A DNA stretch of 64,000 nt, from assembly GCA_965198235.1 (NCBI GenBank), contig OZ240248.1:2624001-2688000 (forward strand). Direction: 5' to 3'. Position numbers and translations under genes: made by a program. The first letter of the stretch is position 1; each line of letters starts with the position of its first letter. The notes beneath the pieces were generated by a model that was not told where the DNA came from, did no database searches, and saw nothing but the letters and a program-made list of their open reading frames with translations. This document shows positions 10,048-48,101 of this stretch, piece by piece. Source of the DNA: Candidatus Poribacteria bacterium (GTDB lineage Bacteria; Poribacteria; WGA-4E; WGA-3G).

Positions 10048-10182
10048 TATAGTAAAGCCCGAAAATATATGAACACTTTAGAAAACACAAATGACCGACT
10101 CGCTGGCGGGGTTTCCTGAGGAAACACCCAAGCAAAAACACCCCGCTAATCTTTGGGTGAATTAATGGTGGGTTTTACTATA
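10048..10182. mobile_element. MITE family B copy 1 (TIR TATAGTRAARYCC)
   Basis: tatagtaaagccc ... gggttttactata; homologous ends at 11403-11533 and 27123-27239. Confidence 0.75.
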
Positions 10183-10214
10183 AACATTTCAAGCGCAATA
10201 CAGGTTTTCCGTTT

Positions 10215-10276
10215 GTGGTAGGGCAATTCATTGCCCGTTCCATCCACGGTTAACGGGTGATAGATCGCCTAACTAC
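10215..10276. repeat. Inverted GTAG-REP pair (REPIN-like)
   Basis: gtggtagggcaattcattgcccgtt ... aacgggtgatagatcgcctaactac; same REP type at about 11855 and 43983. Confidence 0.65.
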
Positions 10277-10307
10277 GAATGCATAAGCCTAAAAAAGTCA
10301 AATGTTT

Positions 10308-11363
10308 CTATGGTGACAGTATTTCAATGGCGCGGCGTTCCGTGGTTGCTTTACGTGCGGCTTCGATAATTGCGAGATTGTGATACGCTTTCTCTGCAGG
10401 CACCGGTAGTGCTGTGTTCGCCGCAAGTGCGTTGAAGGTCTCTGTGAAATAGCGGACATGTCCACTTGCGTCCTGCTGTTCTGCTTCATTAAATTCAGAG
10501 AGTTCCAGTTGTTTCCATCCGTCTGCCCGTGTGAAACGCCGGAGTGCATCCTCCACATTTCGGCGGTGTTGGACGCGTAGAGAGCCGTTTTCAGCGTGCA
10601 TCTCGCACCAGCCGGAATCCGTACCAGGCACACACCACGCCCCTGAAACCGTTGTGACAGCCCCGTTTTCATGTTCACACAGTAGCATCGCGATGTCGTC
10701 AACGTCAATGTCAAGTCGTAACGTTTGCACGCGTGCCTCAACGTAACACACCGGGGATCGCATCAGCGTACAGACGGAATAAATTTCATGGTAACTTGTG
10801 TCAATGATACAACCACCGCCTTTCGCTTTGCTGGCGCGCCACGCGAACGCTGGAGTCGGATGATCCGCTGAGAAATCTGTCGGTTTCAGCCCCATTCCAA
10901 CACTTCGTCCGAAGTGCGATTCACCCAAGGCATCCAGTTCTGTCATCGCCGATCGCATCCCAGCGGTAAAGATGTAGTTATGTACCACTGTATAGGGGAC
11001 GCTGTTACGACGGACTGCCTCCAGAATTTTATCCGCCTCTTCTAACGTCGTCGCCATCGGTTTTTCAGAGATAATAGCTACGTCTGCTCCTGCTGCTTCT
11101 ATTACCTGCTCGGCGTGAAGTGAGTGCGGTGTGGCAACGGTCACCGCGTCGATTGTTGCGTGTTCCAGCATGTCTCGATAATCTGCATATCGGTTTTCTG
11201 TAGGCACGCTGAACATGTCTCCAATCTTTTGCAAATTCGCCGGGACAATATCCGCGAGTGCAGTAACCTTAACAGTATCTGGGAGGGAGCGGTAGGCACG
11301 GGCATGCGTATTTTGCACAATACCCCCACAGCCAATCAGTCCTAAGCGGATCGGTTTTTTCAT
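10308..11363 (-). CDS. Gfo/Idh/MocA family oxidoreductase
   Basis: GLIGCGGI, ATPHSLH, SEKPMA, GGGCIID; AGGAG Shine-Dalgarno before ATG 11363. Confidence 0.88.
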   Translation of the reverse strand: MKKPIRLGLIGCGGIVQNTHARAYRSLPDTVKVTALADIVPANLQKIGDMFSVPTENRYADYRDMLEHATIDAVTVATPHSLHAEQVIEAAGADVAIISEKPMATTLEEADKILEAVRRNSVPYTVVHNYIFTAGMRSAMTELDALGESHFGRSVGMGLKPTDFSADHPTPAFAWRASKAKGGGCIIDTSYHEIYSVCTLMRSPVCYVEARVQTLRLDIDVDDIAMLLCEHENGAVTTVSGAWCVPGTDSGWCEMHAENGSLRVQHRRNVEDALRRFTRADGWKQLELSEFNEAEQQDASGHVRYFTETFNALAANTALPVPAEKAYHNLAIIEAARKATTERRAIEILSP

Positions 11364-11402
11364 TGTATATCTCCTTTGTATAGAGTTTAGCATATTTTTT
11401 AT

Positions 11403-11533
11403 TATAGTGAAATCCAAAAATATGTTTACACTTGTAGCATAGGAAACCGTTGGTCTCCTGTGCCAGCGTGAGCCGCAACTTCATAGTTCGCACTACGATA
11501 CGAGTGTCCAAAGTAATTACGGAATCTACTATA
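11403..11533. mobile_element. MITE family B copy 2
   Basis: tatagtgaaatccaaaaatatgtttacacttgtag ... gtgtccaaagtaattacggaatctactata. Confidence 0.75.
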
Positions 11534-11591
11534 ATGTCAAATTCTTTGCGCGGCTTGATGTGGGCATTTGGTTTCCTCACTCTTTCTCCGC

Positions 11592-11978
11592 TCCATTCCT
11601 TGTATTACATTTCCATTCCTTGTATTACATTGCAAAAACCCCAAGCAAAAACACCGCACCGAGCATGGTTGGGACATTACCGAATTGAATTGTTAATCTT
11701 CATGCAACCGCCCCAGTGTTTATCTGAATCGCGGATTATCGCAGATGACGCAGATTTCGCGGATTTTAAGAGTTTGTCGCGTTGTGATTTTTGAGTCCTG
11801 TAGGGGTCGGATGTTTAGAATCTCGGTTCTTTGATGGCGGGGTTTCGCTGTTTGTAGTAGGGCAATTTATTGTCCGTCCGTTGGATCTATAGATATCTGA
11901 TGCCTCTCCGCTGCTGACGAGATTTGAAACCTTGCCGATTCCCCAGGCCCGGTAGGTGCGGTTTCCCAACCGCACCGA
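11592..11978. repeat. Intergenic repeat mosaic: 20-bp tandem duplication, G/T micro-element, 9-10-mer tandem, several GTAG REPs
   Basis: tccattccttgtattacatt x2 (11592-11631); ccccaagcaaaaacacc (about 11639-11655); (cgcrgat) units 11729-11765; gtagtagggcaatttattgtcc at about 11855; gtaggtgcggtttcccaaccgcaccg at about 11952-11977. Confidence 0.7.
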
Positions 11979-13606: not shown

Positions 13607-16600
13607 CTATAATAGTGGCAAATTTTTGACAATCTCCACCGTTTTCAGACTCACCGTGATAACACGTCCAATCAAATCCACAATATACTGCGGCTGATCC
13701 GCACGGTTCGGGTCATTCACGATCCCACTCCGTTTGTCTACTTTGACGCGATACTGATCCACCACCCATTCCACCGCAGAACGCGTGCCTAACCGATACT
13801 CATACACCTCCGCAGGGATACCATCCAGCGTCAGGAAGTCGTTGTATTTCAACTGCGTTTTGTCTTTGGAGAGTTTCATCTTTTCGACACGCCAATCTAT
13901 CGGTATACCGGGAGTTTCAATATATTTCAGTTCATCGTCCTTCGGAGCGGATTCATAGTTGACGTGGATATCTGCTAACTGTGCACCTGCAGTGGCGAAC
14001 CCCCAGAAATCTTCAGCGAAGGGGATATGCGGTAGGTCGCGCTTGAGATTCGCCTGATACTTTTCGCGATACTCGGGATGGTGTAAGAGCGCGTAGGTAT
14101 AGTGGAAGATGTCCCATTTGGTGATAGCATCGTCTCCGTAGTGATTTTGAAACGCCGCTAATGCCCAATCGGTGATATTCTCTTGTCGATTTGTGCCATC
14201 CTCATCGTAGGTGTAAAAGGGAAAGGATTGTTGTGGGTCGCCATAGAGATTCACATCGGGAATACATTGGCTCATCAACACGGCAAACTCTTTCCGACCA
14301 TAGCCTCCGACGCAAATTACTTGGTTCTCCGACTCTGTTACTGATCTTGGAAAGATTGAAGGAAACACATGGACATCATTGTTTATTGTCCGATCAAAAT
14401 AAAGATTTAATTTAGTAAATGGGCGATAGAGAGATGTCTTCACCTTGCGTTCCGCATATTCAACAATTACCCCTCGTTTTAACTTTACCTTTAGGTCCCG
14501 ACTCCAACTAACTTTCGTGTCATCATAAGCGACAAAATCATCAACGTTGATTTCCCTCTGATTTTCCTGCCGTTTCCACCTATCTACCTCTGTGTTGTAG
14601 GTTTCACTCATGCGCAGAATGTTCTCAGTAAGGACCTTTCGATTAAAGTTGTAAGCCCAGGCATCACGATTGGTTTTTACACCGTTGCTGTAGGTCTTGA
14701 AAATCACATCTGCTGCTATGCCTTTTATTCCCTTTGCTTCCTTAGTTCCCATCGGAGTAAAAGTGTCAAACTCAGCATGAAGTCCGTCGGTGAGCCACGT
14801 ATGTCGCGCGTCAGGTTGAATCGTCTGCCACACAATATTATCTGTATCTTGGGATTCGTTCAAAAAATCGAATTTCTGTCTCTTGTTCCACTTTTCATCA
14901 GTACGATAGTAAAAGATTTGGGAGGAGTTTGATGATTTTCTTCCCTTTTTCACAAAAAAATTAATGCTCACGCCGACCCGAATTCTGAATACGTTCGCGT
15001 CAGAAACTTTCAATCCCTTCCGTGCGTTCCCGCCTAAATCAAGAATGTAAATCGCGTCAAAATCGTTCATGAGATGTTTCCGCATCCCGTCAAATGCCAG
15101 ACCATCAAGAAAACTATTGTTGGTCACAAAGGCAACAACTCCTTCGGTCCCAATCCGTTTTGATGCCCAAAGAATTGCCTTTACATACGGATCTGAGAGT
15201 GCGTTTTTATTGGTCGCTTTTGAGGCTTGCGAATACGTTTCCTGCACGAGCGTGTCCATCATCTCGTACTTCCGATTCTTGTTGTTGTCATTTTGGTTAA
15301 CTTGTTTCGCGTTGTAGGGCGGATTGCCGATAACGACAAACATATCCGTCGCCTTCTGCTTTTTCACACGTTCTGTGTTTTCCTGCGTGAAGAGTTCTAT
15401 TTGTCGGTCCTCCAGCAGCTCAAACGTGTCCGCAAGTGCGATCCCGTCAAACGGCAGATACGTCCCCGTCCGTTGAAAATACTCCTGCTCGATGTTAAGA
15501 CTTGCGATGTAGTAGGGCAATAACAGAATCTCGTTGCAATGCAGCTCGTGACGGTATTTCTCTTCAAATGTTGTCGCTTGGATGTCCTGCATGAGCCGGA
15601 CGATGAAGTTGCCGGTGCCGACGAACGGATCAATGATATGAACGCCGATATCCGACAGCGACCGGTCGAACTCGGTTTCCAAAATCTGTTCAACACTGTT
15701 CACCATGAAATCAACGATCGGCTGCGGGGTGTAGACGATGCCGTGAGTGTCCGCCACCTTAACGGAAAATCCCTGAAAAAACTGCTCGTAGACGGTATTG
15801 AGAAATTGCTGTTTTTGGGAGAAGTCTTTGCAGAGCAAAGCTGCTTGTTCAATGGCGAGATAGAACGGGTCCAGTTCTCTGAGGAACGCGTCGCGACTAT
15901 ACGTCTGTCCGATAAGCACTTCAATGACCTTTTCAATTTCGCGTGCGATGATATTTCGGCGGGTGAAATCCGGATTATTGAAAACAGTACGAAAGATGCG
16001 TTCGGTGAGCAGGTGTTGGATGAGCATCTCCTCAACAGCAGTTTTAGAGAGGTTCGGATTGATTGCGGCGCGGCACTGTTGATAAAAATCTGTGAAAACG
16101 GTGACAAATTGTGGGTTCGTCTCGTGTTGTTCCGCTATGAGTTCTGCGGCTTTTCTACCGAGGGTGGGAACCTTCTCTTTAAATTCGGCGACGGCAGCGT
16201 GCCAGTTTGTGAGCGCAGCGGGTGGCACGGCGAAAAGGTGTTGGAGTGCCGTAATCAGGCGTGTTGGATCGGTAATGTCTACGTCAAAAACCTGCTCCCC
16301 GTTTTGATAGAGAATGCCGTGCTGTGGATTTTGGAAAAAAATGTTATCAAGCGGATAACCCGCTTCACGTTTCTCCTGCACGGCTTTGTAGAGGTTATCG
16401 TCTATATCTTTCGCTTCCCAGTAGGCGAACGGGAGTCCGTATGTGTCGAGTATCACGCCGTCGAGAACGATACGGTTGCCCGATGGCGCGCGCATCGCGA
16501 ATTGTGGAATCAGGGTAGCATCCACCTGTTTTGCACAGACGGTAAGCAGCGTTTCAAAAGGGGAACTGACAGCACCTTCGTGTGTGATGTCGTGCCTATT

Positions 16601-16669
16601 ATATTGCTGCAGCGTGGCGTAGTAGTCTCGGACTGCTTTGTGGCTGGGTTTGAGATTGAGTTGTGGCAT
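13607..16669 (-). CDS. Single-chain restriction-modification enzyme (N6-adenine MTase, N-terminal PD-(D/E)XK nuclease, type ISP-like specificity domain, no helicase)
   Basis: LDG...WEAK nuclease motif; GIVYTP, DPFVGTGNF (motif I), GNPPY (motif IV); C-terminal YRPF, YALLHHPEYR, EWVVDQY. Confidence 0.85.
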   Translation of the reverse strand: MPQLNLKPSHKAVRDYYATLQQYNRHDITHEGAVSSPFETLLTVCAKQVDATLIPQFAMRAPSGNRIVLDGVILDTYGLPFAYWEAKDIDDNLYKAVQEKREAGYPLDNIFFQNPQHGILYQNGEQVFDVDITDPTRLITALQHLFAVPPAALTNWHAAVAEFKEKVPTLGRKAAELIAEQHETNPQFVTVFTDFYQQCRAAINPNLSKTAVEEMLIQHLLTERIFRTVFNNPDFTRRNIIAREIEKVIEVLIGQTYSRDAFLRELDPFYLAIEQAALLCKDFSQKQQFLNTVYEQFFQGFSVKVADTHGIVYTPQPIVDFMVNSVEQILETEFDRSLSDIGVHIIDPFVGTGNFIVRLMQDIQATTFEEKYRHELHCNEILLLPYYIASLNIEQEYFQRTGTYLPFDGIALADTFELLEDRQIELFTQENTERVKKQKATDMFVVIGNPPYNAKQVNQNDNNKNRKYEMMDTLVQETYSQASKATNKNALSDPYVKAILWASKRIGTEGVVAFVTNNSFLDGLAFDGMRKHLMNDFDAIYILDLGGNARKGLKVSDANVFRIRVGVSINFFVKKGRKSSNSSQIFYYRTDEKWNKRQKFDFLNESQDTDNIVWQTIQPDARHTWLTDGLHAEFDTFTPMGTKEAKGIKGIAADVIFKTYSNGVKTNRDAWAYNFNRKVLTENILRMSETYNTEVDRWKRQENQREINVDDFVAYDDTKVSWSRDLKVKLKRGVIVEYAERKVKTSLYRPFTKLNLYFDRTINNDVHVFPSIFPRSVTESENQVICVGGYGRKEFAVLMSQCIPDVNLYGDPQQSFPFYTYDEDGTNRQENITDWALAAFQNHYGDDAITKWDIFHYTYALLHHPEYREKYQANLKRDLPHIPFAEDFWGFATAGAQLADIHVNYESAPKDDELKYIETPGIPIDWRVEKMKLSKDKTQLKYNDFLTLDGIPAEVYEYRLGTRSAVEWVVDQYRVKVDKRSGIVNDPNRADQPQYIVDLIGRVITVSLKTVEIVKNLPLL

Positions 16670-20010: not shown

Positions 20011-21717
20011 ATGTTAACAAAACTGATTTGCCGTAATTTCAAAAACTTTGGCGAAGTCGAGATTGAATTAGGGAATCCCGTCGTTTTCATCGGTCCAAAT
20101 AACTCTGGCAAGACGACAGCGTTACAAGCACTCGCTCTGTGGGAGATAGGGCTCAAACGATGGAACGAGAATCGCAAGGGGAAAACAAACCCAGAAAAGC
20201 GTCCGGGTGTTGTTATCAACCGACGCGACCTCATTTCCGTTCCGGTCCCAAGTGCGCGATTACTCTGGCGAAATTTGCAAGTCCGCGATCCGCAAAATGT
20301 CCGTATAGATATTATCGTTGAGGGTGTCACAATAGGCAAAGAATGGAAATGTGGTTTGGAATTTGATTATGCCAATCAGGAATCTTTTTACTGCCGTCCT
20401 TTGAGAATGCCGGACACAGATGAGAAAGGTCCTAAACGAATGCCTGTTCCTAACGAAGCGGAAAAACTTTCTGTTGCCTACCTTCCCCCGATGTCTGGTC
20501 TCGCCTCTAGTGAATTACGCCTTGACCCAGGGGCGATCAATGTTCGTATCGGAGAAGGACGGACAGCAGAAGTCTTGCGTAATATTTGCTATCAGGTTTC
20601 ACATGAGACCCAAAAATGGGAAAAACTCTGTGAGCAAATCAGTGCGTTGTTTGGTGTGTCCCTTGATGAACCGCATTATATTCAGGAACGTGGGGAAATT
20701 GCAATGGACTTTCGAGATGAATCTGGCATTTCTCTAGACCTCTCTTCATCGGGACGTGGCTTGCAACAAACGCTACTGCTACTTGCCTACATCGCAGCGC
20801 ATCCTGGATCTGTCCTTTTGCTTGATGAGCCAGATGCGCATCTTGAGATCCTTCGACAGCGTCAGATTTACCAAGTGCTTACAGAATTAGCGCGGGAACA
20901 TGGCAGTCAAATCGTTGCCGCCAGTCATTCTGAGGTTATTCTAAACGAAGCAGCAGGCCGTGATGTTGTTATCGCCTTTCTCGGCACGCCCCACCGAATT
21001 GATGATCGCGGTAGTCATCTTATTAAATCGCTTCGGACGATTGGTTTTGAGCAGTACTATCAGTCACAGCAACAGGGCTGGGTACTTTACCTTGAAGGTG
21101 CAACGGATCTCGCAATCCTGCGGGCGTTTGCTGAAAAACTTTCACATGACGCGATGGCTGTGTTAGAACGTCCTTACGTTCATTATGTTGGTAATCAACC
21201 GACGGAGGCACGTAAACACTTTTACGGTTTGCGTGAGGCAAAGCCTGATCTCGTCGGATTCTGTCTCTTCGATCGAATTTCTGACCAACTTCAGACTCCT
21301 CCTGAATTAATAGAATACGCGTGGCAAAGGCGTGAGATTGAGAATTACATTGTGTCCAGCAGACAGGTGCTAATTGACTGGGCACGTGCGGAGGGGGAAG
21401 AACGAACTGAAGGTCCACTATTCTCAATACCCTGGGTATCTACAATGGAGGAAAGGATTACGGAGATCGAAAACGCCCGTGCAACACTTCGTCAAGAATC
21501 ACCTTGGTCTCCAGATATCAAAGTGACTGACGATTTTTTGGATGGACTGTTTGAAACGTTCTTTGAAAAATTGGAAATGCCGAACCTCATGCAAAAGACA
21601 AATTATCATACTTTAGTCCAATATGTGCCAGTAGACCAGATTGACCCTGAAATCGCCAAAGTGCTTGATGCTATTTTGGAGGTTGCAGAAAAAGCAGTGC
21701 CGTTGAGCAGTGTGTAA
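20011..21717 (+). CDS. OLD-like ATP-dependent nuclease (ABC-type ATPase plus TOPRIM)
   Basis: Walker A GPNNSGKT, signature SSSGRG, Walker B LLLDEPDAHL, ASHS; TOPRIM-like LYLEGATD...FD, REIENY. Confidence 0.78.
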   Translation: MLTKLICRNFKNFGEVEIELGNPVVFIGPNNSGKTTALQALALWEIGLKRWNENRKGKTNPEKRPGVVINRRDLISVPVPSARLLWRNLQVRDPQNVRIDIIVEGVTIGKEWKCGLEFDYANQESFYCRPLRMPDTDEKGPKRMPVPNEAEKLSVAYLPPMSGLASSELRLDPGAINVRIGEGRTAEVLRNICYQVSHETQKWEKLCEQISALFGVSLDEPHYIQERGEIAMDFRDESGISLDLSSSGRGLQQTLLLLAYIAAHPGSVLLLDEPDAHLEILRQRQIYQVLTELAREHGSQIVAASHSEVILNEAAGRDVVIAFLGTPHRIDDRGSHLIKSLRTIGFEQYYQSQQQGWVLYLEGATDLAILRAFAEKLSHDAMAVLERPYVHYVGNQPTEARKHFYGLREAKPDLVGFCLFDRISDQLQTPPELIEYAWQRREIENYIVSSRQVLIDWARAEGEERTEGPLFSIPWVSTMEERITEIENARATLRQESPWSPDIKVTDDFLDGLFETFFEKLEMPNLMQKTNYHTLVQYVPVDQIDPEIAKVLDAILEVAEKAVPLSSV

Positions 21718-25502: not shown

Positions 25503-26714
25503 GTGAGTATCTTGGAGAGTCTTACAAACGCATTAACTGCCTTGTTGGCAAATAAACTCCGATCTATTTTGACGATGTTAGGTGTGATCATCGGTGTCGG
25601 CGCAATTATAACCACGACCTCGATTGGTGAAGGCGCGAAAGCCGACATCACTGAACGGATTCAGACATTGGGAGCGAACATTCTCGCTGTCCGTCCAGGG
25701 CAAAGTCGGTTCCGGGGACGTGGATCTGCTGATGCTCGGAAAAGTCTCACCGTCCAGGACATGGCGGCTTTAGAGGAGCGCGGGCAAAGTTTTGGTTATG
25801 TCACGCCTGAGGTCAGTAGCCGTGCACAGGTGAAGTACCTCAGTAAAAATACAAACACAACTATCGTCGGAACATCTCCAGCTTATCTCGTCACCGCGAA
25901 CTTTACGGTTGAGAAAGGGCGATTTTTTACTGATAGTGAGATCCGCTACCGTCAGCGCGTATGCATCCTCGGCAAAACCGTTGTTGACAACCTCTTTGAA
26001 ACCATAGAACCCGTCGGCAAGACAGTAAAAATTAAGGGGGTCGGTTTTCATGTCTTGGGTGTTATGAAGGAGAAGGGCGCGAGTGGTTGGCGAAACCCAG
26101 ATGACCAGGTTTTCATCCCCTATTCAACTGCTATGAAACGCGTTTTCGGGGAGGACTACCTTTCCAGCATCAGTATACAGGCGAATGATGACAAACTCAT
26201 TCAAGCCGCGGAAACTGAGGTAACAGAACTCCTCCGCAAGCAACACAAGATCCCAATAAACAAAGAACTTGATTTTCATATCCGCAATCAGGCGGAATTT
26301 ATGGAAACTTTGGAAGAGTCGAGCCAAACTTTTACCAACATGATTTTGGGGATTGCTGTCGTTTCTCTCGTCGTCGGTGGTATCGGTATCATGAACATTA
26401 TGCTCGTCTCTGTGACGGAGCGAACGAGAGAGATTGGACTCCGGAAAGCCGTTGGTGCACAGCGCTCCGATATCCTCGTTCAATTCCTTGTTGAGTCTAC
26501 GACGCTCGCACTCCTCGGAGGCCTCGTCGGCATTGGTGTTGGCATCATCGGCGCGGAAGCAGTGCCATCAATCTGGGGATGGCGAACCGTCATCTCACTG
26601 ATGTACGCAGTGCTCTCTTTTGTTGTCAGCGCGTTGGTTGGGGTCTTTTTCGGCGCATATCCCGCATGGAAGGCAGCAAAACTCCATCCGATTGATGCAC
26701 TCAGACACGAATAA
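25503..26714 (+). CDS. MacB/FtsX-like ABC transporter permease
   Basis: NKLRSILTMLGVIIGV, GGIGIMNIMLVSVTERTREIGLRKAVGA, YPAWKAAKLHPIDALRHE. Confidence 0.92.
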   Translation: MSILESLTNALTALLANKLRSILTMLGVIIGVGAIITTTSIGEGAKADITERIQTLGANILAVRPGQSRFRGRGSADARKSLTVQDMAALEERGQSFGYVTPEVSSRAQVKYLSKNTNTTIVGTSPAYLVTANFTVEKGRFFTDSEIRYRQRVCILGKTVVDNLFETIEPVGKTVKIKGVGFHVLGVMKEKGASGWRNPDDQVFIPYSTAMKRVFGEDYLSSISIQANDDKLIQAAETEVTELLRKQHKIPINKELDFHIRNQAEFMETLEESSQTFTNMILGIAVVSLVVGGIGIMNIMLVSVTERTREIGLRKAVGAQRSDILVQFLVESTTLALLGGLVGIGVGIIGAEAVPSIWGWRTVISLMYAVLSFVVSALVGVFFGAYPAWKAAKLHPIDALRHE

Positions 26715-26736
26715 ATTACACCAGAGGCACGATTTC

Positions 26737-26843
26737 ATGAAGTTTAAATAAATATTTCGGTAATTCCATTTGAGAAAACGATTGTAGGGGGTTTTTGCTT
26801 GGGTGTTTTCCTAGGTCTTGTGCCTGCCCGCGTATTACTTCAT
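26737..26843. mobile_element. MITE family D copy (degenerate right end) containing a REP interrupted by the G/T micro-element
   Basis: Left end atgaagtttaaataaatatttcggtaat resembles 41046-41073; right end is collapsed to attacttcat; cargo is gtagggg[gtttttgcttgggtgttttcct]aggtcttgtgcctgccc. Confidence 0.55.
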
Positions 26844-27239: not shown

Positions 27240-27261
27240 TTATATAATAAAAGGAATTAAG

Positions 27262-27978: not shown

Positions 27979-27993
27979 GCGTTGCCTATTATA

Positions 27994-28149: not shown

Positions 28150-28165
28150 TTACATATCTGTAGTC

Positions 28166-28417
28166 TGTAGGTTGGGTTGAACGGTACCAAACGACTCGGC
28201 TTCCCCAGAAACAAAAGTCCGTCGAAACGTCAGGTGTTCTGATAAAAAGGAAAATGAGTGAAACCCAACTTTAGAAGTGGCCGACATCCCCTGGGATAGG
28301 TATATGAAGTGTTGGGTTTCATTCGCCACTTTTCCAGTGGGCGATGTCTGTCTTAAAAATCGCCAGTTGTCTTGAGTTTGAAACGGTTTTGCTGTCATCC
28401 GTTCAACCCAACCTACA
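28166..28417. repeat. Long REPIN-like element with perfect 19-bp outer inverted repeat
   Basis: tgtaggttgggttgaacgg ... ccgttcaacccaacctaca; inner IR gagtgaaacccaac / gttgggtttcattc. Confidence 0.82.
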
Positions 28418-31221: not shown

Positions 31222-31431
31222 GAAGGACAAAATTGCTGAATAATCGTAGAGATCAGGAATGTGAGTCACGCTTTCTTTAAGCCGCTCGCAATTCTTAGGA
31301 AACACCGCAACTTCACTGAAAACCTGCCCGAAATGAAATTATGCCTTAAATGGCATAATTTGTCTTTGCTTTACATTTGGAGGGGTTTTTGCTTGGGTGT
31401 TTCTTTAACCCAGGAGCGAATAGTTTAAAAA

Positions 31432-32319: not shown

Positions 32320-32444
32320 TAGAGGCAGCTCTTGTGGCTGCCCAGAGATGTTAGACTTTTCATATCCTTCTAACTGATAACCGACAGCTATTCTTACAGA
32401 TAGCCGACGGCTGATTGCTGACGGCTAATAAAGGAGGCATTTGC

Positions 32445-33641
32445 ATGCGTCAAATTGGATCAACCCCTGTTACTGCACCCGGTTGGACTGCGAAATCGAA
32501 AGACGGGATCGCTATCGTCGATTGTGATGTTCACCACAATTTCCGGCACCCTACGCAATTGTTGCCTTACTTGTCAAAATTCTATCAGGAGCATCTCCTC
32601 GATCAAGGGCTACATCTCGGCGGGTATCCGAATATCCCAATTCGTAGCAATCGCGTGGACCTCAAGGGGAGGGTCGAAGAAGCCATCGAATCGACACCCA
32701 AGAACTCCGGCGGCGACCCCAGAGATTTTAACTTCACATTAGAGTTCCTCCAAGACGAGCATCTTGATGTTTGGAATATTGATGTCGCCGTGCTTACGGG
32801 ACCGCCCCCGTTCTACGGGTATTCTGGACTCCCTGATCCCGATTGGGCGGCTGCGCTCTGCCGCGCCTTTAACGATTGGACAATTGAACATTGGCTTGAT
32901 CGCGACGAACGCGTCGTCAATGCCATTCTCGTCTCTCCGTCCGACCCACCCCAAGCCGTAGAAGAGATTAACAGACTCGCACACCGGAAAGACACTGTCG
33001 CTGTTATGGTTCCGATGGGAACAAGTCGTCCCTTTGGCAACCGCTTCTATCATCCTATATGGGAAGCGTGTGAGGCGCACGGATTGCCTGTCGTATCGCA
33101 CATTGGTGGTGGCGGCGGGGCGACCCGGAACACACCAACCCCTGTCGGGCATCCCACCTACTACATGGAATCCCGAATGAGTCGCCCTTATGTTGCTAGT
33201 TCACACGCGACATCTCTGATCTGCGAAGGGGTCTTTGAAAAGTTTCCCAATCTCAAGTTCGCGCTCATTGAAGTACAACAGATGTGGGCGGTGCCGGTGA
33301 TGTGGCATCTCGATACCGATTGGAAAGCACTACGCGACCAGACCCCGTGGCTTAAACGCCTGCCGAGTGAGTACTTCCGTGAACACATACGGATCGGGTC
33401 ACAGCCGATGCACGAGCCTGAAAAACCGGAACAGATGTACCAGATGTTAGAAATGATCCACGCAGATGAAACGTTGATATTCTGCTCAGATTTCCCGCAT
33501 TTCGATTGGAACGATCCGGTGACGGTTTTCCCCAAGCTCCCGGAAGACTTACACTGTCGTATCTTCGCCCAAAACGCCCTCGATATCCTTCGATTGGATT
33601 TGGAAAAAGCCAACGGATCCGCGAATCCAGTAGCAAATTAA
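32445..33641 (+). CDS. Amidohydrolase 2 family protein
   Basis: VDCDVHH, AFNDW, YHPIWEAC, GVFEKFPNLK, FCSDFPHFD. Confidence 0.88.
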   Translation: MRQIGSTPVTAPGWTAKSKDGIAIVDCDVHHNFRHPTQLLPYLSKFYQEHLLDQGLHLGGYPNIPIRSNRVDLKGRVEEAIESTPKNSGGDPRDFNFTLEFLQDEHLDVWNIDVAVLTGPPPFYGYSGLPDPDWAAALCRAFNDWTIEHWLDRDERVVNAILVSPSDPPQAVEEINRLAHRKDTVAVMVPMGTSRPFGNRFYHPIWEACEAHGLPVVSHIGGGGGATRNTPTPVGHPTYYMESRMSRPYVASSHATSLICEGVFEKFPNLKFALIEVQQMWAVPVMWHLDTDWKALRDQTPWLKRLPSEYFREHIRIGSQPMHEPEKPEQMYQMLEMIHADETLIFCSDFPHFDWNDPVTVFPKLPEDLHCRIFAQNALDILRLDLEKANGSANPVAN

Positions 33642-33779
33642 CCGGAAACCTGTTTTTTTAAGCTATGGGCACTATGACTGCTCTCCACTTCGTTACGAGC
33701 AGGTTCTTAGTAAAATTCGTGTTCGTTTCTAAAAAGGAATACAGGATACATCAAAACCCAAGCCTGCAACACCGGCGCA

Positions 33780-33958
33780 GGGTTTTTGCTTGGGGTGTTT
33801 TTGCTTGGGGTTTTTGATAGGGCGTTTCTGCGGATTTCTGCGTATTGATAGGGGTTTTTGCTTGGGGTGTTTTTGCTTGGGTATTTCTGCGTATTGATAG
33901 GGTGTTTCTGCGGATTTCTGCGGATTTCTGCGGATTTCTTTTTCCTCAATTTCTTCAA
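33780..33958 (+). repeat. G/T-rich nested array of the 22-25 bp micro-element
   Basis: About 7 heads (gtttttgcttggg, gtttttgataggg, gtattgataggg) and about 8 tails (tttctgcgga, tttctgc, tttcctcaa, tttcttcaa). Confidence 0.85.
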
Positions 33959-34021
33959 CTCGAACACGGAAAACGTTAAAGTCTTAAATCGCGTTACTTA
34001 TCCGCAAGGGAAAATTAAAAT

Positions 34022-34399
34022 ATGGCACGTGTTGTCGTCGGAAAAGTATCGGAGATTCCACCGGGGAAACGCAAGATCATCGTGCCGTTCCGTGGCAAGG
34101 TAGGCATCGGGGTCTTTAACGTTGACGGCACCTTTTACGCTGTCCGTAACATCTGTCCGCACAAGCGCGGACCCCTATGTACAGGTGAACTCACTGGCAG
34201 ATTCGCCGCCGATGCACCGCCTTCAATTCAGGGCGTAATGCTCTCTGTTGACGGTTTGGGCGAGGTGCTACGCTGTCCGTGGCATCAGTGGACATTTGAT
34301 ATTGCTACCGGACAGTGTCTCGTCGATGAGACGTTACGTGTAGCGACTTATCCCGTCAAAATTGACGGTGATGATGTTGTCGTCGAATACGATGGCTAA
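34022..34399 (+). CDS. Rieske [2Fe-2S] ferredoxin (NirD-like)
   Basis: NICPHKRGPL and RCPWHQWTFD. Confidence 0.9.
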   Translation: MARVVVGKVSEIPPGKRKIIVPFRGKVGIGVFNVDGTFYAVRNICPHKRGPLCTGELTGRFAADAPPSIQGVMLSVDGLGEVLRCPWHQWTFDIATGQCLVDETLRVATYPVKIDGDDVVVEYDG

Positions 34400-34408
34400 G
34401 TTAATTGA

Positions 34409-34557
34409 AACCCAAGTTACTACCTAACGAGTATTGTACGTTCAAAGGGAGGTATCAGTTGGCTTTCCTACTCCAGCGGAGTAGTATGTCTATAGAATCC
34501 CGGGCGTTGAAATGCATGCACTCCAGCGGAGTGCTATTTCTATAAAAAGGTGACTTA
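34409..34557. mobile_element. MITE family C copy 3 (degenerate right end) with hairpin doublet
   Basis: aacccaagttactacc left end; ctactccagcggagtag at 34468 and gcactccagcggagtgc at 34518. Confidence 0.62.
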
Positions 34558-34597
34558 ATCTTGCCGAAAGACTCAATATGCCGAAACGGGGGACATA

Positions 34598-35371
34598 ATG
34601 ATTAACAGAATTCCGAAACAAATTTTTATTTTCGCCATTATAGCAACTGTCTTAATGGCTGCAAGCGTGGTACACGCGCGTCAAGCGATTACCGATGGGC
34701 TGGTGAGTTACTGGTCCTTTAATAAAGATACAGTCGCAGGTAAAACGGTTAAAGACATTTTCGGTGCAAGCGATGGAACCATGGATGGGGATGTCGAGGT
34801 CGCTAACGGTAAAGTCGGTGAGGCACTCAAGTTTAGTGGGGGCCATGTTGATTGTGGAGCAGATGAGAGTTTAACCGACATTGGCGATCAGATTACATTG
34901 GAGATGTGGATAAAACCTGAAAAACCTGGTTGGGCGATTATCGCAGGCATATCGAGGTCAGGAAATAATTCCTATGTGATTGCGTGGTCAGACCAAACTC
35001 GGGTTGATTTTAATCTCTGGAACGGTGCCTTGGAAACGTGGCCCTTTCACAGCGTCGGTCAGCCCGACGTAGGTAAATGGCATCACGTCGCTGGTGTCTA
35101 CGACGGTTCCGAAGCCATTATTTATATCAATGGTGAAGTGGATAATGAGAAAAAATTTGAGGGTGCTCTCAAACATAATGGAGAGAACTTTTGGATGGGT
35201 GCCAGAAAATCGGATGGACTTCCTTACAACGGTCTTCTTGACGAACTTCGCCTCTACAACCGCGGTCTCAGTCAAGCGGAGATTGAAAATAACCTTGACG
35301 CGGAAGGACTTGCTGTCGAACCGACCCAGAAATTGGCACTCACCTGGGGCGCAATAAAGGTTTCAAAGTAG
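34598..35371 (+). CDS. Secreted LamG-like jellyroll domain protein
   Basis: Signal peptide, GLVSYWSF, GKVGEALKF, WHHVAGVYDG, DELRLYNRGL, tail LAVEPTQKLALTWGAIK. Confidence 0.88.
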   Translation: MINRIPKQIFIFAIIATVLMAASVVHARQAITDGLVSYWSFNKDTVAGKTVKDIFGASDGTMDGDVEVANGKVGEALKFSGGHVDCGADESLTDIGDQITLEMWIKPEKPGWAIIAGISRSGNNSYVIAWSDQTRVDFNLWNGALETWPFHSVGQPDVGKWHHVAGVYDGSEAIIYINGEVDNEKKFEGALKHNGENFWMGARKSDGLPYNGLLDELRLYNRGLSQAEIENNLDAEGLAVEPTQKLALTWGAIKVSK

Positions 35372-35555
35372 GGGGTTTTTGATAGGGTGTTTCTTTCCGT
35401 TGTGGTTGTCTCCTAAAGACTGCGTTCGTAGGCAGGTAGCAACTCAGGTAGTTAAACATAACCGAAGTATTTTTAATCTGCATCTAACGTTGTCTGTTTC
35501 TGTTTCTCCTGCTGGCGAGTTTGCTAACTTCGTCTCTCAAAGAGAAGGGAATATA

Positions 35556-36059
35556 ATGAACAAGCAACCGCGTTTTTCCATTGAAGAACTGACAGCCGAT
35601 CACTCGGATTGGCAGGACTTCGTTGCGCTCGTCAACGACGTGAACCAAGAAGGGTGGGCGTTTAATCCGTCCTTTGAGCAGTTTTCACGCTACTTTTTGG
35701 TGGCAAAACAGGATGGGACCATCGTCGGATTTCTCATGTTTGTGGTGTGGGACATTGGTCCCCATGATCGCGACCATCCACCTCTTCAGATACATGGAAA
35801 AACGCTGAGAGAGGCGAAAATCCTCGCGTTTGGCGTGAAAGAGGGATACCGACGGCAAGGCATCGGCACCGCACTCCAGGAATATACCATCAAACAAGCG
35901 AAGTTGTTTGACTGCTACCAAGTTCGATCCGTCAGCGGTGAAAATCATCCTGAAAACCATCATCTCAAACTCTCTATGGGGTTTGCCGTAGAACCGATGG
36001 AACGCGATGAAAAGTGTTTAGCGTTTGTGATGCCTCTTAAGTCGATGGACAGGAGATAA
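35556..36059 (+). CDS. GNAT N-acetyltransferase
   Basis: FGVKEGYRRQGIGTAL acetyl-CoA binding motif; start at MNKQPRF after gaaggga. Confidence 0.8.
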   Translation: MNKQPRFSIEELTADHSDWQDFVALVNDVNQEGWAFNPSFEQFSRYFLVAKQDGTIVGFLMFVVWDIGPHDRDHPPLQIHGKTLREAKILAFGVKEGYRRQGIGTALQEYTIKQAKLFDCYQVRSVSGENHPENHHLKLSMGFAVEPMERDEKCLAFVMPLKSMDRR

Positions 36060-36065
36060 TTTTTC

Positions 36066-36467
36066 GTGAAGGAGTTAACCCACGCTGAAAAACAGCAACT
36101 TGAGGGAAAAATTAAAGAAGAGCAAAAACGGCAACAAACACTTCGAGAAACGAATCCAGACCTACCGGAGTCTTTTGAAAAGGCATCGGCAAAAACGGGG
36201 CTTTTACGAAGAACCGTACCAAATGCTCTCCGAAAATACGGTATGCTCGGGCTTATTCTCTGCCTACTTGTTTTTAACGTGCAGCACCTGCTAAAATGGC
36301 AGGATTTTGCCGATGATGAATACGGAAATCTCGTTATTGCTCTGATGCTACTCTTCAATCACATTGCCTATAATTTCACGAAAACCGGGTGGAAAAGCCG
36401 CGTGATGAAAACGGTTGCATGGATTTGGATAGTCCTTGGATTCGTGTACATCTTTTGGGTGGCTTAG
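36066..36467 (+). CDS. Hypothetical membrane protein
   Basis: 133 aa, charged N-terminus and three hydrophobic helices. Confidence 0.6.
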   Translation: MKELTHAEKQQLEGKIKEEQKRQQTLRETNPDLPESFEKASAKTGLLRRTVPNALRKYGMLGLILCLLVFNVQHLLKWQDFADDEYGNLVIALMLLFNHIAYNFTKTGWKSRVMKTVAWIWIVLGFVYIFWVA

Positions 36468-36561
36468 AGACCAGGTTGCTTGATGGATCGTTTTTTACAA
36501 TTTTTCGGGACACGGAAGCGTAATTTTCCTATCAACGAGGAGTCGTGTAATTCGCCACAGG

Positions 36562-42907: not shown

Positions 42908-43031
42908 CATACCGCTCCGCTGGAGCGGAAGCGTCGAGTCGGCTCGCTGCTATAGATATATTGCTCCTCTGGAGCAAAGGTACGCCTTTTAGATATGATG
43001 TTGGGTTTCAGATGTGCTCAACCCAACCTAC
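42908..43031 (-). repeat. CTCCAGCGGAG hairpin doublet (minus strand) plus a GTAG-REP
   Basis: ccgctccgctggagcgg at 42912, ctatagatatattgctcctctggagcaa ending at 42977; tgttgggtttc...tcaacccaacctac at 42999-43031. Confidence 0.72.
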
Positions 43032-45385: not shown

Positions 45386-45472
45386 GAATCGGTATGCTAT
45401 CACGTTTTTAAGGGTGAATATAGGTTGCCCTCGTATACACAGTCAATAAGTTAGCACAGGAGGAACGCCACC

Positions 45473-46336
45473 ATGGCGGAGAAAATGTCGTGCCCATTTT
45501 GTGGTACTCAGGTCGAATACGCTATCGAAAATTCTCCTGATTGGTATCGCGATCCTTCCCTACCCGTCTACCGAATCGATTGTCATGATAAATGTAGGCA
45601 GTATTGGCTTGAAGGAATTTCTGACCCGCACCCACAGATTGATCCCGCTATCCTTACCTTCCTGGATTCACTCGATGATGAACAACGAACATTTATATCC
45701 GAATCAACGCAACACGCTTGTGACAATGGTATTTTGATAGTTTATAACAGAAGTGCGTTAGGATACCTTACCACCGATTGGCATTATGCAAAAGCGGCTG
45801 TTATGTCGTTCGGATTCAATGACGTTTCATTCCGAATCAGTGGTGTGGGATTTGATATTGCTAATATGTTGTTTTTCGTGCACACTGAGGACGCTCGGTT
45901 CACACTCAGACTCCATCGAGTCGGAACTTCTGTCCATAAAATTCGGTCTGAAATTTATTGGTTAAAGGCACTTTGGAACGAGGGACGAATCAAGACCCTC
46001 TCGCCTGTGCTTGGACGTGATGGGAAAATGATTCAATGTGTCTCCCCAAACGACCTACCCTCGCGCTATGCGACTGTATATGATTGGATTCCTGGCGAGA
46101 CGCTTAACACACTCCCTGCAGCAAAGAAAACACCAGAACTGATTCGGAGTCTCGGTATCATAGTGGGTCGCATGCACTATGTATCAGAAACCTTAGAGCT
46201 CCCGCAATGGTTTACCCGTCCGCGATACGACATAGACTGGGTTACCCCCCAGGTTGAAAAGGCACTTGGAAATGATGAAATGGACTCTTCGGCGGAGGAG
46301 CTTGCAAAACTATCCTCTGGAATACGTCCCTCTTGA
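45473..46336 (+). pseudogene. Truncated APH/type II homoserine kinase-like phosphotransferase with N-terminal Cys-rich domain
   Basis: FTLRLHR, SEIYWL, YDWIPGE and GRMH are present, but the ORF stops before any HxD catalytic motif; N-terminus has CPFC...CHDKC. Confidence 0.6.
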
Positions 46337-46404
46337 TTGACCTACCTTCACATCTGTGATAACATGTCTGCACGAAAGATACGGAGTGTCTAAGGAGTCT
46401 CCAC

Positions 46405-47796
46405 ATGGAACATCGCTATCTTTTCCTCGACCTGCATCACATCACTCGAATCGAACGATTGTATCGCCGAATACACCAACCCCAACGGCATCCTAATAAC
46501 CCGGTATTGCGCGGTGAGAATCCGTGGGAGAGTGTCGCATCCCTCTACGGCACAGTCCTCTATGACCCAGAGAATTCACTCTTCAAAATGTGGTATCTCA
46601 CAGGACCTTACGTTGATGGAATGGTGCAAATCCGTCAACGGAACGCGCTCGGCAATGTGACACTCCTCGGCTATGCTACCTCAACCGATGGCGTACACTG
46701 GGAGAAACCCATCCTAAACCAAGTCGACTTTGAAGGAAGCACCGCCAATAATCTTATTGATGTCGGACGCACAAACTGCGAAGGCATGGCTGTCATCTAC
46801 GATGAGCACGAAACGGACCCTACCCATCGTTACAAAGGCTTTTATTGGGAACACGGTGGGATCGACACCTTCATTCAGCACGAAGGACGGACGATCTGGG
46901 GACGTGGGGAGGGAGACGGCATGTGGATGTCTTTTTCTCCAGACGGTGTTCACTGGAAAAACTGCGAAACCAATCCCGTCATTCCGCTTGATAGCGACAC
47001 GACTCAATCCTTAGTGTGGGACCCGAAAATACAGAAATACGTTGTCTTTGGGCGATTCGGGGCAGGTGGACGCAAAACCGCTCGCGCCGAGAGTCCCGAC
47101 GCGATCCACTTCAGCGGACCGAAACGCGTGTTTGAATGCGATGAGGTTGATGAGGAAGGCACCCAAATTTACGGCATGCCAATCAACATCTACGAAGGTA
47201 TCTATCTCGGTATGATCTGGGTCTATCGCGAAGGCGTTGATGGCACGATTGACACATCGCTCGCGATGAGCCGTGATGGTATCAACTGGCAACGCGTCCT
47301 GGATCGTCAAACATTCCTATCGCTCGGGCAGGCGGGCAGTTGGGAAGACGGGATGGTGAGAATCACCCAGAATTTTGTCACACATGACGATCAAATCTAT
47401 TTCTATTACGGTGGCGTGAACGGACCGCACACCGGCAGGAAATTCAAGCAGGTCGAACGTAAGCACACATCCATGCTCGGCTTGGCGACATTACGGCGTG
47501 ACGGATTCGTCTCACTTGATGCAGATGAAACCGAAGGGTACATGCTGACGAAACCGATAACGCTCAATGGTGGGGAATTACTCCTCAATGTTGATGCGAG
47601 TCAAGGTTATGTTATCGTTTCGGTCACGGATGATACAGGGGCACCTCTGGAAAATTATACCTCTCAGCGGATTGTCGGAGATCAATTGGATGCAGAAATT
47701 AAATTTAACCGTTCGCTGGAAGCACTTAAAGGAAAAGAGCTCCGACTCCAATTTCAAATCAGAAACGCGAGTCTGTATTCCTACTGGTTCGTTTAA
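46405..47796 (+). CDS. Putative five-bladed beta-propeller glycosidase-like protein
   Basis: YATSTDGVHWEKP, SPDGVHW, SRDGINW, LRRDGFVS. Confidence 0.68.
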   Translation: MEHRYLFLDLHHITRIERLYRRIHQPQRHPNNPVLRGENPWESVASLYGTVLYDPENSLFKMWYLTGPYVDGMVQIRQRNALGNVTLLGYATSTDGVHWEKPILNQVDFEGSTANNLIDVGRTNCEGMAVIYDEHETDPTHRYKGFYWEHGGIDTFIQHEGRTIWGRGEGDGMWMSFSPDGVHWKNCETNPVIPLDSDTTQSLVWDPKIQKYVVFGRFGAGGRKTARAESPDAIHFSGPKRVFECDEVDEEGTQIYGMPINIYEGIYLGMIWVYREGVDGTIDTSLAMSRDGINWQRVLDRQTFLSLGQAGSWEDGMVRITQNFVTHDDQIYFYYGGVNGPHTGRKFKQVERKHTSMLGLATLRRDGFVSLDADETEGYMLTKPITLNGGELLLNVDASQGYVIVSVTDDTGAPLENYTSQRIVGDQLDAEIKFNRSLEALKGKELRLQFQIRNASLYSYWFV

Positions 47797-47850
47797 GCAC
47801 AACGAATTTTACTATAAACGTGAGTTCCATAATAATATCCAAGTGTGGAC

Positions 47851-48101
47851 GTAGGTGTTTTTGCTTGGGTGTTTCCCCCAGGTTGAGCCATAAAAGACCC
47901 AGACTGTCTCGTTTATATGGAGGATTCGCTTCTCATGGTCTATTGGGGCAAGGAGATGGAGCGAAACCCAACAATTTAAACGTTGTAAGTGTAATAATGT
48001 GTTGGGTTCGCTCGTATTCTGGTGATTTTAGGTTTCTTGATGAATTTGAGCGTTATCTGTTCTGTGCGATTTCCAATAAATTCCCGTTCAACCCAACCTA
48101 C
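47851..48101. repeat. REPIN-like element (same family as 28166-28417) with left arm interrupted by the G/T micro-element
   Basis: gtaggt[gtttttgcttgggtgtttccccca]ggttgagc ... gcgaaacccaaca / tgttgggttcgc ... ccgttcaacccaacctac. Confidence 0.78.

Follow-up and report, generated by a model that had tools for sequence, protein, structure and literature searches.

The locus raises the question of why one short word should recur at six separate places in a 64,000-nt stretch of poribacterial DNA (the window), often interrupting a repeat hairpin. A first-pass annotation had proposed a process that inserts the word into REPs in one orientation, guided by the target sequence, with its start fixed and its end ragged. 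Empty alleles, an exact left boundary and a varying right junction support such a process. Its confinement to REPs was not borne out, because the element also occurs within genes, within an IS element and within itself, and among small repeats it has entered, apart from REP hairpins, a 5'-leader repeat and the end of a MITE-like element. The explanation that we tentatively prefer is that the word is a non-autonomous insertion module of very small size (~21 nt), of the kind of the cyanobacterial small dispersed repeats (SDRs), copied into its sites by template switching.

A search with the GTTTTTGCTTGGGTGTTT core as an 18-mer, allowing up to three mismatches, found 11 matches in the window where 0.07 were expected, a number reached in none of 100 shuffles. 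Six are the dispersed copies already listed in the first-pass annotation (Table 1), all of them present, with the one at 11635 only partial; the remaining five make up a mosaic array. GGG or GGT precedes each of the six, as had been claimed, and all are intergenic with respect to real genes, overlaps being confined to mechanical ORFs. These are the short ORFs 26799-27065, 26716-26961 and 47820-48143, ORF 9581-10141, which is overlapped at its unsupported first codons and has no Pfam match, and ORF 35379-36059, whose orthologues begin at the ATG at 35556.

Table 1. Copies of the element and the associated MITE-like element in the window
Feature	Position	Strand	Context
Single copy, exact core	10121..10139	-	gcggggt, then GTTTTTGCTTGGGTGTTTC; inside a hairpin with a 12-bp stem
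Partial copy	11635..11652	-	ggtgcggt, then one GTTTTTGCTTGGG word, then GTTTTTG
Single copy	26791..26812	+	gtagggg before; interrupts the 5' arm of a REP hairpin (GTAGGGG / AGGTCTTGTGCCTGCCC, 26783-26829)
MITE-like element, intact (empty) copy	28167..28416	+	both terminal repeats GTAGGTTGGGTTGA uninterrupted
Single copy	31385..31407	+	ggaggg before; 3' arm of the 5'-leader repeat hairpin
Mosaic array, 157 nt	33782..33938	+	same element family; four short words
Single copy, ATA variant	35375..35396	+	gtagggg, then GTTTTTGATAGGGTGTTTC; 3 nt past the stop codon of gene 34598-35371
MITE-like element, ~250 nt, filled	47851-48101		split by the 47857 copy
Single copy	47857..47880	+	gtaggt before; splits the left terminal repeat (GTAGGT / GGTTGAGC) of the MITE-like element

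In three cases removal of the insert had been said to restore a REP. For the copies at 26791 and 47857 this stands in that empty counterparts exist: the paralogue GTAGGGGCAGGTCTTGTGCC for the former and, for the latter, the uninterrupted arm GTAGGTTGGGTTGA, present at 28167 and at three other places and also at the orthologous site in two relatives. For the copy at 10121 what is seen is that the flanks form a 12-bp stem (GGCGGGGTTTCC/GGAAACCCCGCC). The arms of this hairpin are 10105-10116 and ~10140-10146 plus GTTTCC of the element itself, a 6-nt overlap at the 3' junction, and folding of the filled site gives -9.4 kcal/mol. The copy at 31385 lies 25 nt upstream of the ATG at 31432 and replaces CAG of GGAGGGCAGCCCAGGAG; its orthologous site is empty in six relatives. 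The copy at 35375 replaces 2-3 nt of a small hairpin that reads GGACATCCGTTGTGGTTGTCC in relatives, and no empty allele was found among the public contigs aligned to the window, which cannot show rare variants. The depth of these contigs spikes at element sites, where the element breaks short-read assemblies. In the partial copy at 11635, GTTTTTG is joined to another tandem repeat (CAATGTAATACAAGGAATGGAAATG) at 11590-11634.

The unit consists of GTTTTTGCTTGGGTGTTTC and two pyrimidines. Genome-wide there are 400 matches to the core, 96 of them exact, and 251 tracts, of which 130 are single copies and 112 are mosaic arrays (>22 nt); nested inverted copies also occur. The arrays combine four short words of 6-15 nt, none of them a hairpin, in a constrained order and with a length that differs between copies: GTTTTTG(CTT/ATA)GGG, (T/C)(G/A)TTTC, TGCGGATTTC and TGCGTATTG(ATA/CTT)GGG. 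Joints within arrays fall only at GGG, TTTC or TGC overlaps; units of 13-15 nt restart exactly after GGG, and recombinant words (for example GTTTTTGCGGATTTC) have TGC at the joint. The single copies are the least complex members of a modular family that builds arrays. Among the 130 single tracts, 13 of the 19 core positions are invariant. Tails take the forms CCC, TTC, TTT, CCCA and TTCA. Both results agree with the conservation on the 5' side and the variation in the last bases that were first reported. There is no complementarity between the ends GTTTTTG... and ...GTTTCYY, and no junction inspected has inverted ends or a target duplication, again as first reported. Nor is there structure in the element itself, with folding energies of 0, 0 and -1.8 kcal/mol, no better than those of shuffles.

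That the element arrives at its sites by insertion is evident from alleles of several kinds. Among paralogous repeat copies there are 51 filled/empty pairs, and at orthologous sites between species there are five, so that the empty counterparts on which the original proposal depended do exist. The net length gained in the 31 single-copy pairs is +21 in 19, +20 in six, +19 in two, +13 in two, and +22 and +23 in one each. In eight host-repeat families many copies are empty and fewer are filled (100/18, 79/12, 90/21 and 21/15 empty/filled, for example). Three genes, encoding a histidine kinase, a Mur-ligase-family protein and an LVIVD-repeat protein, carry in-frame insertions of +21, +21 and +15 nt, missing from two to five of the compared relatives; in one of them 21 nt have been inserted cleanly between AGT and CG. 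The 21-nt word amounts to seven codons and is stop-free in all six frames.

The target can be written R-R-G-(G/T)^Y-R, used in one orientation only, and the logo over the 251 tracts reads R-R-G-K on the left and Y-Y-C-R on the right. The left boundary is exact, with G at -2 in 227 of the 251 tracts and T or G at -1 in 241. The right junction is ragged: it slips by 1-3 nt, often overwriting 1-3 host bases, and some returns lie farther downstream, with the loss of 6 or 8 host nt. Host bases by the junction may also be changed to the flank usual for the element family, CG becoming CA in three host families and C becoming T at -1 in the GCGAG hairpin. No target duplication accompanies the 51 paralogous pairs, the five orthologous pairs or the three gene insertions. 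Most insertions hit small repeats, among them REP-type hairpins, in a G-rich arm or at a tip, and many hosts carry GTAG tags; only 72 of the 251 tracts lie between complementary arms of at least 6 bp, and a repeated flank was found in 208 tracts compared with 141 of 500 random intergenic 30-mers. The tracts fall into 129 junction classes and 76 left-flank classes.

Within the genus the element is present in all 24 genomes, at 9-206 copies each, and none of 16 genomes of three sister families carries it (a reversed control gave 0-1). Of the 80 exact matches listed from public genomes, 77 are in records titled Poribacteria. Tracts occur in co-directional, divergent and convergent spacers, and 43 of the 251 lie inside crude ORFs, mostly near the ORF ends.

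The anatomy of the junctions alone suggests how such a unit might be copied in. A 3' end in ...RGK, either nascent or left by a break and in the typical case halted at a hairpin, would pair with the same run before another copy of the element, copy ~21 nt, and then resume on its original template by way of a short Y-R overlap. Slipping at the internal GGG, TTTC or TGC overlaps would copy more and build arrays. Within a host-repeat family, further spread could follow from the mobility of the host repeat and from gene conversion, and no element-encoded or dedicated enzyme would be needed. Switching of this kind with a Y-R return would give a fixed start, a ragged end and donor-like junction bases. 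Copying from a donor is favoured over precise cutting because of the variable net length, the altered junction bases, the far returns, the words joined at TGC, the array joints at GGG and TTTC and the GTTTCC overlap. To our knowledge, bacteria have no established pathway that routinely copies from an ectopic donor far off on the chromosome, and the exact left boundary and the strongly modal +21 would be at least as well accounted for by an enzyme with a defined substrate. It is conceivable, if rather doubtful, that a dedicated machinery recognizes RGK runs at hairpins and writes in a fixed 21-nt word, which would place the element in a separate class of ultra-small mobile DNA that operates on the principle of SDR5. 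In that event the in-frame insertions of seven codons would be a built-in means of protein diversification, and the responsible gene should be findable by association, because a second, unrelated phylum now has such an element, with dozens of genomes closed and copy numbers that differ 20-fold.

The known enzymes closest to such a role are the HUH/Y1 transposases (a RAYT or an IS200/IS605 TnpA), which could bind the host hairpin, cut 3' of RGK and join the 21-mer in single-stranded form. Oriented insertion 3' of a short motif, with neither target duplication nor inverted ends, is what would be expected of them, as are the GTAG tags on many hosts. The genome has six Y1_Tnp genes, three of them RAYT-like with flanking REPs (CACCCCGTAGGGGTG+CTATGTCTATAG), and this REP family is itself a host, with 22 empty and seven filled copies. 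However, the element lacks a hairpin of its own to be bound, its 3' junction is imprecise, and genes and hairpin-free sites are among the targets. RAYT homologues are found in 18 of the 24 genus genomes, but none was found with this query in the genome with 206 copies, which has just two weak Y1_Tnp matches, one with a stop; conversely, five of six and four of five genomes in two sister families have a RAYT and lack the element. Nor is there an orientation bias between skew-defined arms (100:89 versus 33:26), a weak test given the weak GC skew. A role for these enzymes appears unlikely. A reverse transcriptase, acting in a telomerase-like or target-primed manner in which ...GGG primes synthesis on an RNA template and realigning at GGG makes the arrays, would suit the fixed start after a G run, the ragged far end and the exact restart of array units after GGG; it is nonetheless very improbable, as no RVT_1 match was obtained in the 96%-complete two-contig genome while control genomes gave matches.

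Other explanations dispense with an insertion process or put function before mobility. The element could be no more than a variable loop or arm module of REPs and MITEs that had one or a few origins and spreads only by hitch-hiking on these repeats and gene conversion between their copies, with slippage making the arrays. Junctions are indeed identical within a host family (all 15 filled GCACGAG...GATGG copies have T|...|TTC), arrays of 19-75 nt lie at the same site within a host family, and repeated flanks are the rule. Yet the left-flank classes are many, three unrelated single-copy genes, a unique gene-end hairpin and an IS element have been entered, and the register after RGK is always the same in unrelated hosts. 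Hitch-hiking accounts for spread within families but not for entry into new contexts, and as a full explanation it is improbable. Much the same likelihood may be given to a selected functional sequence, such as a sequence recognized by a DNA- or RNA-binding protein, the U-tract of a terminator following a hairpin or a regulator beside the RBS, whose benefit drives its spread. The core is very uniform and conserved across the genus: its differences are 0.026 per site against ~0.3 in the flanks within host families, a comparison biased by the tract-finding method, and this uniformity could mean selection on the sequence. Many copies lie just before start codons or just past stop codons, the 35375 copy is crossed by one RNA-library contig, and the TGCGGATTTC words contain GGA motifs, which are typical of CsrA-type sites. 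Against this, copy number varies widely between species, orthologous sites are mostly empty, and the same leaders work with or without the element. Of the copies flanked by co-directional genes only 86 are sense, as against 63 antisense, and the element keeps no fixed distance from promoters or starts, as a transcription-factor site would, being found in all three kinds of spacer and in genes. The window has no Rfam match at gathering score, and in a terminator scan of 26000-36500 (10.5 kb) none of the 15 terminator-like sites (11.6 expected) corresponds to the single copies at 26791, 31385 and 35375. In-frame copies in genes are hard to square with a role as a site, and arrival at new places would still need a route.

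Among known systems the element is most like the SDRs. Eight of these (SDR1-8), with units of ~21-27 nt, were reportedly described in heterocystous cyanobacteria by Elhai et al. in 2008. A recent paper gives SDR5 as 21 nt and describes the function and mechanism of SDRs as still unknown as of 2026 (PMC13756078). SDR5 inserts between the third and fourth bases of HIP1 (PMC4390886), and SDRs are restricted to one lineage (PMC5861425). By these descriptions the likeness extends to the size of the unit, the high copy number, the dispersed and mostly intergenic placing, the single or tandem and nested arrangement, precise insertion at a short defined target, restriction to a single lineage, and presence or absence at orthologous sites (including the three gene insertions). 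In contrast to the SDRs, the host here is a poribacterium (no Photo_RC gene was found in the genome, which is hence not cyanobacterial), the element targets RRGK^YR, for the most part within REP-type repeats, rather than HIP1 (which has only 139 occurrences), and in-frame gene insertions are shown for the present element. With IS200/IS605 elements it shares orientation, a fixed short target on its 5' side (RRGK, in nearly all 251 tracts) and the lack of duplication; these elements insert in one orientation 3' of a short specific motif, without target duplication or terminal inverted repeats. They are, however, >600 nt long, or >100 nt as derived mini-elements, and have subterminal hairpins, whereas the present element, at 21 nt, lacks both subterminal hairpins and a transposase and is imprecise at its 3' junction (net length 13-23 nt).

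REPs and REPINs with their RAYTs are likewise short, abundant, intergenic and lineage-specific, and REPs, some of them flanking RAYT genes, are hosts of the element; the element itself is not palindromic, is about half their size, lacks a stable hairpin or a GTAG tag of its own, and its copy number does not track RAYT presence across genomes. REPs as insertion targets and in frame within genes, and palindromic elements inserted in frame in ORFs, have been described (PMC3733652). The palindromic elements of Rickettsia resemble the present case in entering functional genes in frame, but are palindromic and mostly longer than this non-palindromic word. The arrays recall BIME-type mosaics and minisatellites in mixing a few short motifs in constrained order and variable length; here, however, the words have 6-15 nt and form no hairpins, and the single unit is scattered over ~130 separate sites.

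We know of hardly any documented mobile DNA below ~30 nt that lacks both a hairpin and an enzyme of its own, the described case being the cyanobacterial SDRs of 2008. The element is apparently among the smallest mobile DNA units seen outside cyanobacteria, and provides a second, independent case, in an uncultured lineage of sponge symbionts. It offers clean junctions (paralogous, orthologous and within genes), a defined target, a word grammar in its arrays and a range of 9-206 copies in one genus, and its mechanism is thus open to test by comparative genomics and a plasmid assay. For annotation, it is an element that reshapes 5' leaders, gene ends and repeat hairpins, and that adds seven residues to proteins.

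All six dispersed copies reported by the first-pass annotation are present in the window sequence, each preceded by GGG or GGT (6/6), and its description of them as intergenic holds, the ORF comparison finding overlaps only with mechanically called ORFs. Allowing at most three mismatches, the core GTTTTTGCTTGGGTGTTT is found 11 times in the window against 0.07 expected, five of these matches being parts of one 157-nt array. The copy at 11635 is partial, a single word followed by GTTTTTG fused to another tandem repeat. The junction of this repeat, CAATGTAATACAAGGAATGGAAATG, with a truncated word recurs at five or more further genomic sites; arrays also contain, between GTTTTTG and TATTTC, a longer element with a CAATGTAATACAAGGAATGGAAATG-type start. 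A search of the window for known RNA families and tRNAs found none. The window also carries two ATPase genes and a gene for a 1020-aa protein, which may be defence genes.

Coordinates of the features discussed (window positions, unless contig C1 of the source genome, G000, is named)
Feature	Position	Remark
Tandem repeat CAATGTAATACAAGGAATGGAAATG (minus-strand reading)	11590-11634	joined to truncated element word
Gene for 1020-aa protein	13607-16669	weak adenine-methyltransferase match
AAA_15/AAA_21 ATPase genes	20011-21717; 49195-50499	AbiEii-like P-loop proteins
MITE-like element, intact	28167-28416	
MITE-like element, split by 21-mer	47851-48101	
MITE-like element, lone end	43018-43031	
5'-leader repeat	31322-31431	CCTGCCC..loop..GGGCAG, CCCAGGAGC, A-rich spacer, ATG
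Element array	33782-33938	
ORF overlapping a copy	35379-36059	orthologues begin at ATG 35556
Plastic spacers	26715-27222; 31222-31431; 35372-35555; 47797-48139	
RAYT-like Y1 transposase genes	G000 C1:1898775-1899119; 606918-607262; 3853757-3854101	
Inverted nested copies	G000 C1:353620; 3568968; 2797237; 2703547; 2767829; 4518194; 2815196; 4184491	

The source genome (5.17 Mb, 48% GC, two contigs, the window being C1:2624001-2688000) contains 400 core matches with up to three mismatches (96 exact, and 87, 121 and 96 with one, two and three). Merging of seeds with at most one mismatch gives 348 tracts covering 10.8 kb, of which 251 were accepted as real (at least 15 nt with a core word, or more than 22 nt); the 97 discarded are mainly solitary 13-mers with one mismatch, such as noise is expected to give. 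The bare 19-nt core accounts for 130 tracts, and 112 exceed 22 nt, the longest reaching 195 nt. Long tracts are chains of four words: A, GTTTTTG(CTT/ATA)GGG, occasionally with an extra G and T; B, (T/C)(G/A)TTTC; C, TG(C/T)G(G/T)ATTTC; and D, TGCGTATTG(CTT/ATA)GGG. The arrays are joined through short overlaps, with GGG followed by A or B and TTTC by C, D or host sequence; recombinant words such as GTTTTTGCGGATTTC, with the joint at TGC, also occur. The element alone has no fold (0 to -1.8 kcal/mol, comparable to shuffles) and no stop codon in any of the six frames. Its core seems far more conserved than its flanks, but this comparison is biased by tract finding with seeds that allowed one mismatch and is given no weight here.

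The 21-nt unit is gained at new sites, and five orthologous pairs of filled and empty sites (with and without the element) capture such gains. At 31385 the source genome reads GGAGGG[GTTTTTGCTTGGGTGTTTCTTTAA]CCCAGGAGCG, and six relatives with the same leader (loci L164, L165, L169, L170, L177 and L186) are empty, reading GGAGGGCAGCCCAGGAGC, which completes a CTGCCC/GGGCAG stem. At 35375 it reads TAGGG[GGTTTTTGATAGGGTGTTTCTT]TCCGTTGTGG and relatives have TAGGGACATCCGTTGTGG or TAGGGCATCC; among 22 anchored loci the element is found in only one other, in a different host. At 47857 it reads GTAGGT[24 nt]GGTTGAGC, and the corresponding position in two relatives reads GTAGGTTGGGTTGAGC; the copy of the MITE-like element split here has an intact counterpart in the same window. 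The other two pairs lie among relatives alone (L245 versus L240, L206 versus L197). Each of the five insertions costs the host a pyrimidine-purine step (CA, CA, TG, (C)TG and CG). At 26791 no orthologous comparison is possible, because every relative lacks the host REP (hairpin repeat) in the orthologous spacer.

The alignment of filled with empty repeat copies that had been proposed as a check provides empty counterparts for 51 tracts within the genome. To obtain them, the left and right flanks of every one of the 251 tracts were fused and used as a query against the genome. Matches across the junction turned up for 58 tracts, and discarding those that themselves contained the element left 51. 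Across the 31 single-copy pairs the net gain is 21 nt in 19, 20 in six, 19 in two, 22 in one, 23 in one and 13 in two. Typical exchanges are GGAGGG-CG-GATC to GGAGGG-core+TTCA-GATC, GCGAG-CTGT-GCTCGC to GCGAG-T+core+CCCAT-GCTCGC, and GTAGGGG-C-AGGTC to GTAGGGG-core+CCT-AGGTC. When eight host families are anchored on host flanks only, empty and filled copies number 90 and 21 in H1, 100 and 18 in H2, 79 and 12 in H3, 7 and 2 in H4, 27 and about 10 in H5, 22 and 7 in H8, 21 and 15 in H9, and 82 and about 10 in H12; long fills without element words in this count are mainly false pairings between adjacent repeat copies.

Insertion is oriented and sequence-targeted, with a fixed start and a ragged end, as the first-pass annotation had inferred. 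The target is RRGK^YR (^ marks the insertion point), the 5' junction is exact and the 3' junction loose, and there is no duplication and no structure. Over the 251 tracts the left flank has a purine at -4 and -3, G at -2 (227/251) and T (159) or G (82) at -1; to the right, beyond ...TTTC, come two pyrimidines, next mainly C, then A/G. Grouped by junction the tracts make 129 classes, and by left flank 76. For 208 of the 251, one or both 30-nt flanks recur elsewhere, compared with 141 of 500 random intergenic 30-mers. Complementary arms of at least 6 bp surround 72/251 tracts, against 29/251 with swapped flanks and 74/500 random intergenic sites; hairpins are therefore enriched, yet not the rule.

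The proposal that the process acts on REPs stands in part. The hosts do include GTAG-tagged REP hairpins, and one of these REP families lies beside RAYT-like genes (REP-associated Y1 transposases). Insertions are also found, however, in a 5'-leader repeat that closes with a ribosome-binding site and a start codon, in a terminal repeat belonging to a MITE-like element of about 250 nt, in an IS element, in genes, and in the element's own reverse complement. Inverted copies inside another copy (GAAACACC-element-TTAAGCAAAAAC) form palindromic composites, and their left flank, CACC, is an exception to RRGK. The MITE-like element has terminal inverted repeats GTAGGTTGGGTTGA, and the site orthologous to its 47.8-kb copy is occupied in two relatives. 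The leader repeat appears to provide the ribosome-binding site for many genes; in the window copy a 40-nt insert that forms a hairpin, TTATGCC..GGCATAA plus TTTGTCTTTGCTTTACATT, sits in the loop, and L164 is the sole relative with extra sequence at that position.

Three tracts in long ORFs were compared with five closed relatives, and all three insertions keep the reading frame. An 818-aa histidine kinase (HAMP, HisKA, HATPase_c) has a clean 21-nt insertion, ...GAGAGT / CG..., in the source genome and one relative, absent from four. A 550-aa Mur-ligase-family protein has gained 21 nt in the source genome and two relatives but not in three others, and a 1201-aa LVIVD/FlgD_ig protein carries the element in the source genome only, 21 nt replacing 6 (+15). 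Both sense insertions translate as VFAWAFP.

Several readings of the element were considered. A link to the direction of transcription was rejected: in the window 7/7 are sense, but genome-wide co-directional spacers hold 86 sense and 63 antisense tracts (41 others sit between divergent genes, 18 between convergent genes and 43 within crude ORFs). No chromosome-wide or replication-strand bias is seen, but the weak GC skew leaves the arms poorly defined. A terminator reading was rejected, as a consensus terminator scan of 26000-36500 calls none of the three single copies there. Reverse transcriptase was discarded with the absence of an RVT_1 gene from the genome. Six Y1_Tnp genes are present, three IS605-like with a tnpB-like neighbour and three RAYT-like and REP-flanked. 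Inverted REP pairs, for example CACCCCGTAGGGGTG and CTATGTCTATAG, lie on both sides of each RAYT-like gene, the classic REPtron layout. RAYT homologues occur in 18 of 24 genomes of the genus and also in two sister families without element copies, and none was found with the query used in the genome with 206 copies; Y1_Tnp matches occur in all five re-checked genomes, the 206-copy genome having only two weak ones. RAYT was rejected as mobiliser, its presence being out of step with element copy number.

An exact start and a strongly modal gain of 21 nt make insertion by an HUH-type enzyme a serious rival. In the copy-in reading preferred here, new units would be copied from existing ones when stalled or broken 3' ends switch templates, and within host families the element would spread through the hosts' own mobility and gene conversion. 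Logan contigs of four public runs, compared over window positions 26500-36400, bridge the 35375 copy gap-free in an RNA library and three other runs, and one RNA-library contig spans this copy and both adjacent genes, although such libraries may contain DNA. No joint that removes the element is among the 15 listed of 64, and these contigs say nothing on present activity, because rare alleles, starts and strands are invisible in them.

The nearest described kind of element is the small dispersed repeats (SDRs) of cyanobacteria, known here through citing papers. The host is not a cyanobacterium, since it has no photosystem reaction-centre gene and only 139 HIP1 sites, which are not enriched. No title among the papers citing Elhai 2008 describes an SDR-like element outside cyanobacteria, titles and opening lines of abstracts on Poribacteria repeats or intergenic DNA mention no such repeats, and the core motif occurs in the literature searched only as one unrelated primer match. 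With at most one mismatch the core is found in 24/24 genomes of the genus, at 9-206 copies each, whereas none of 16 genomes from three further families in the same order has it; as a control, the reversed pattern yields 0-1 matches. When one genome per species is scanned for exact matches, at least 116 stretches are found, the 80 matches listed being titled Poribacteria (77), 'uncultured bacterium' (2) and Pyrinomonadales (1).

The orthologous spacers are very plastic: depending on the species within the genus, their length can be as little as 8 nt or exceed 1,000 nt. Varied small repeats fill them, and some species have an additional gene at two of the four. In three relatives (L181, L185 and L187) the spacer orthologous to that around 31385 is taken up by arrays in which a different short unit (GTCCCCCTGATAAGGGGGATTTAGGGGGTT...) is repeated in tandem, which suggests that additional micro-repeat families exist in the genus.
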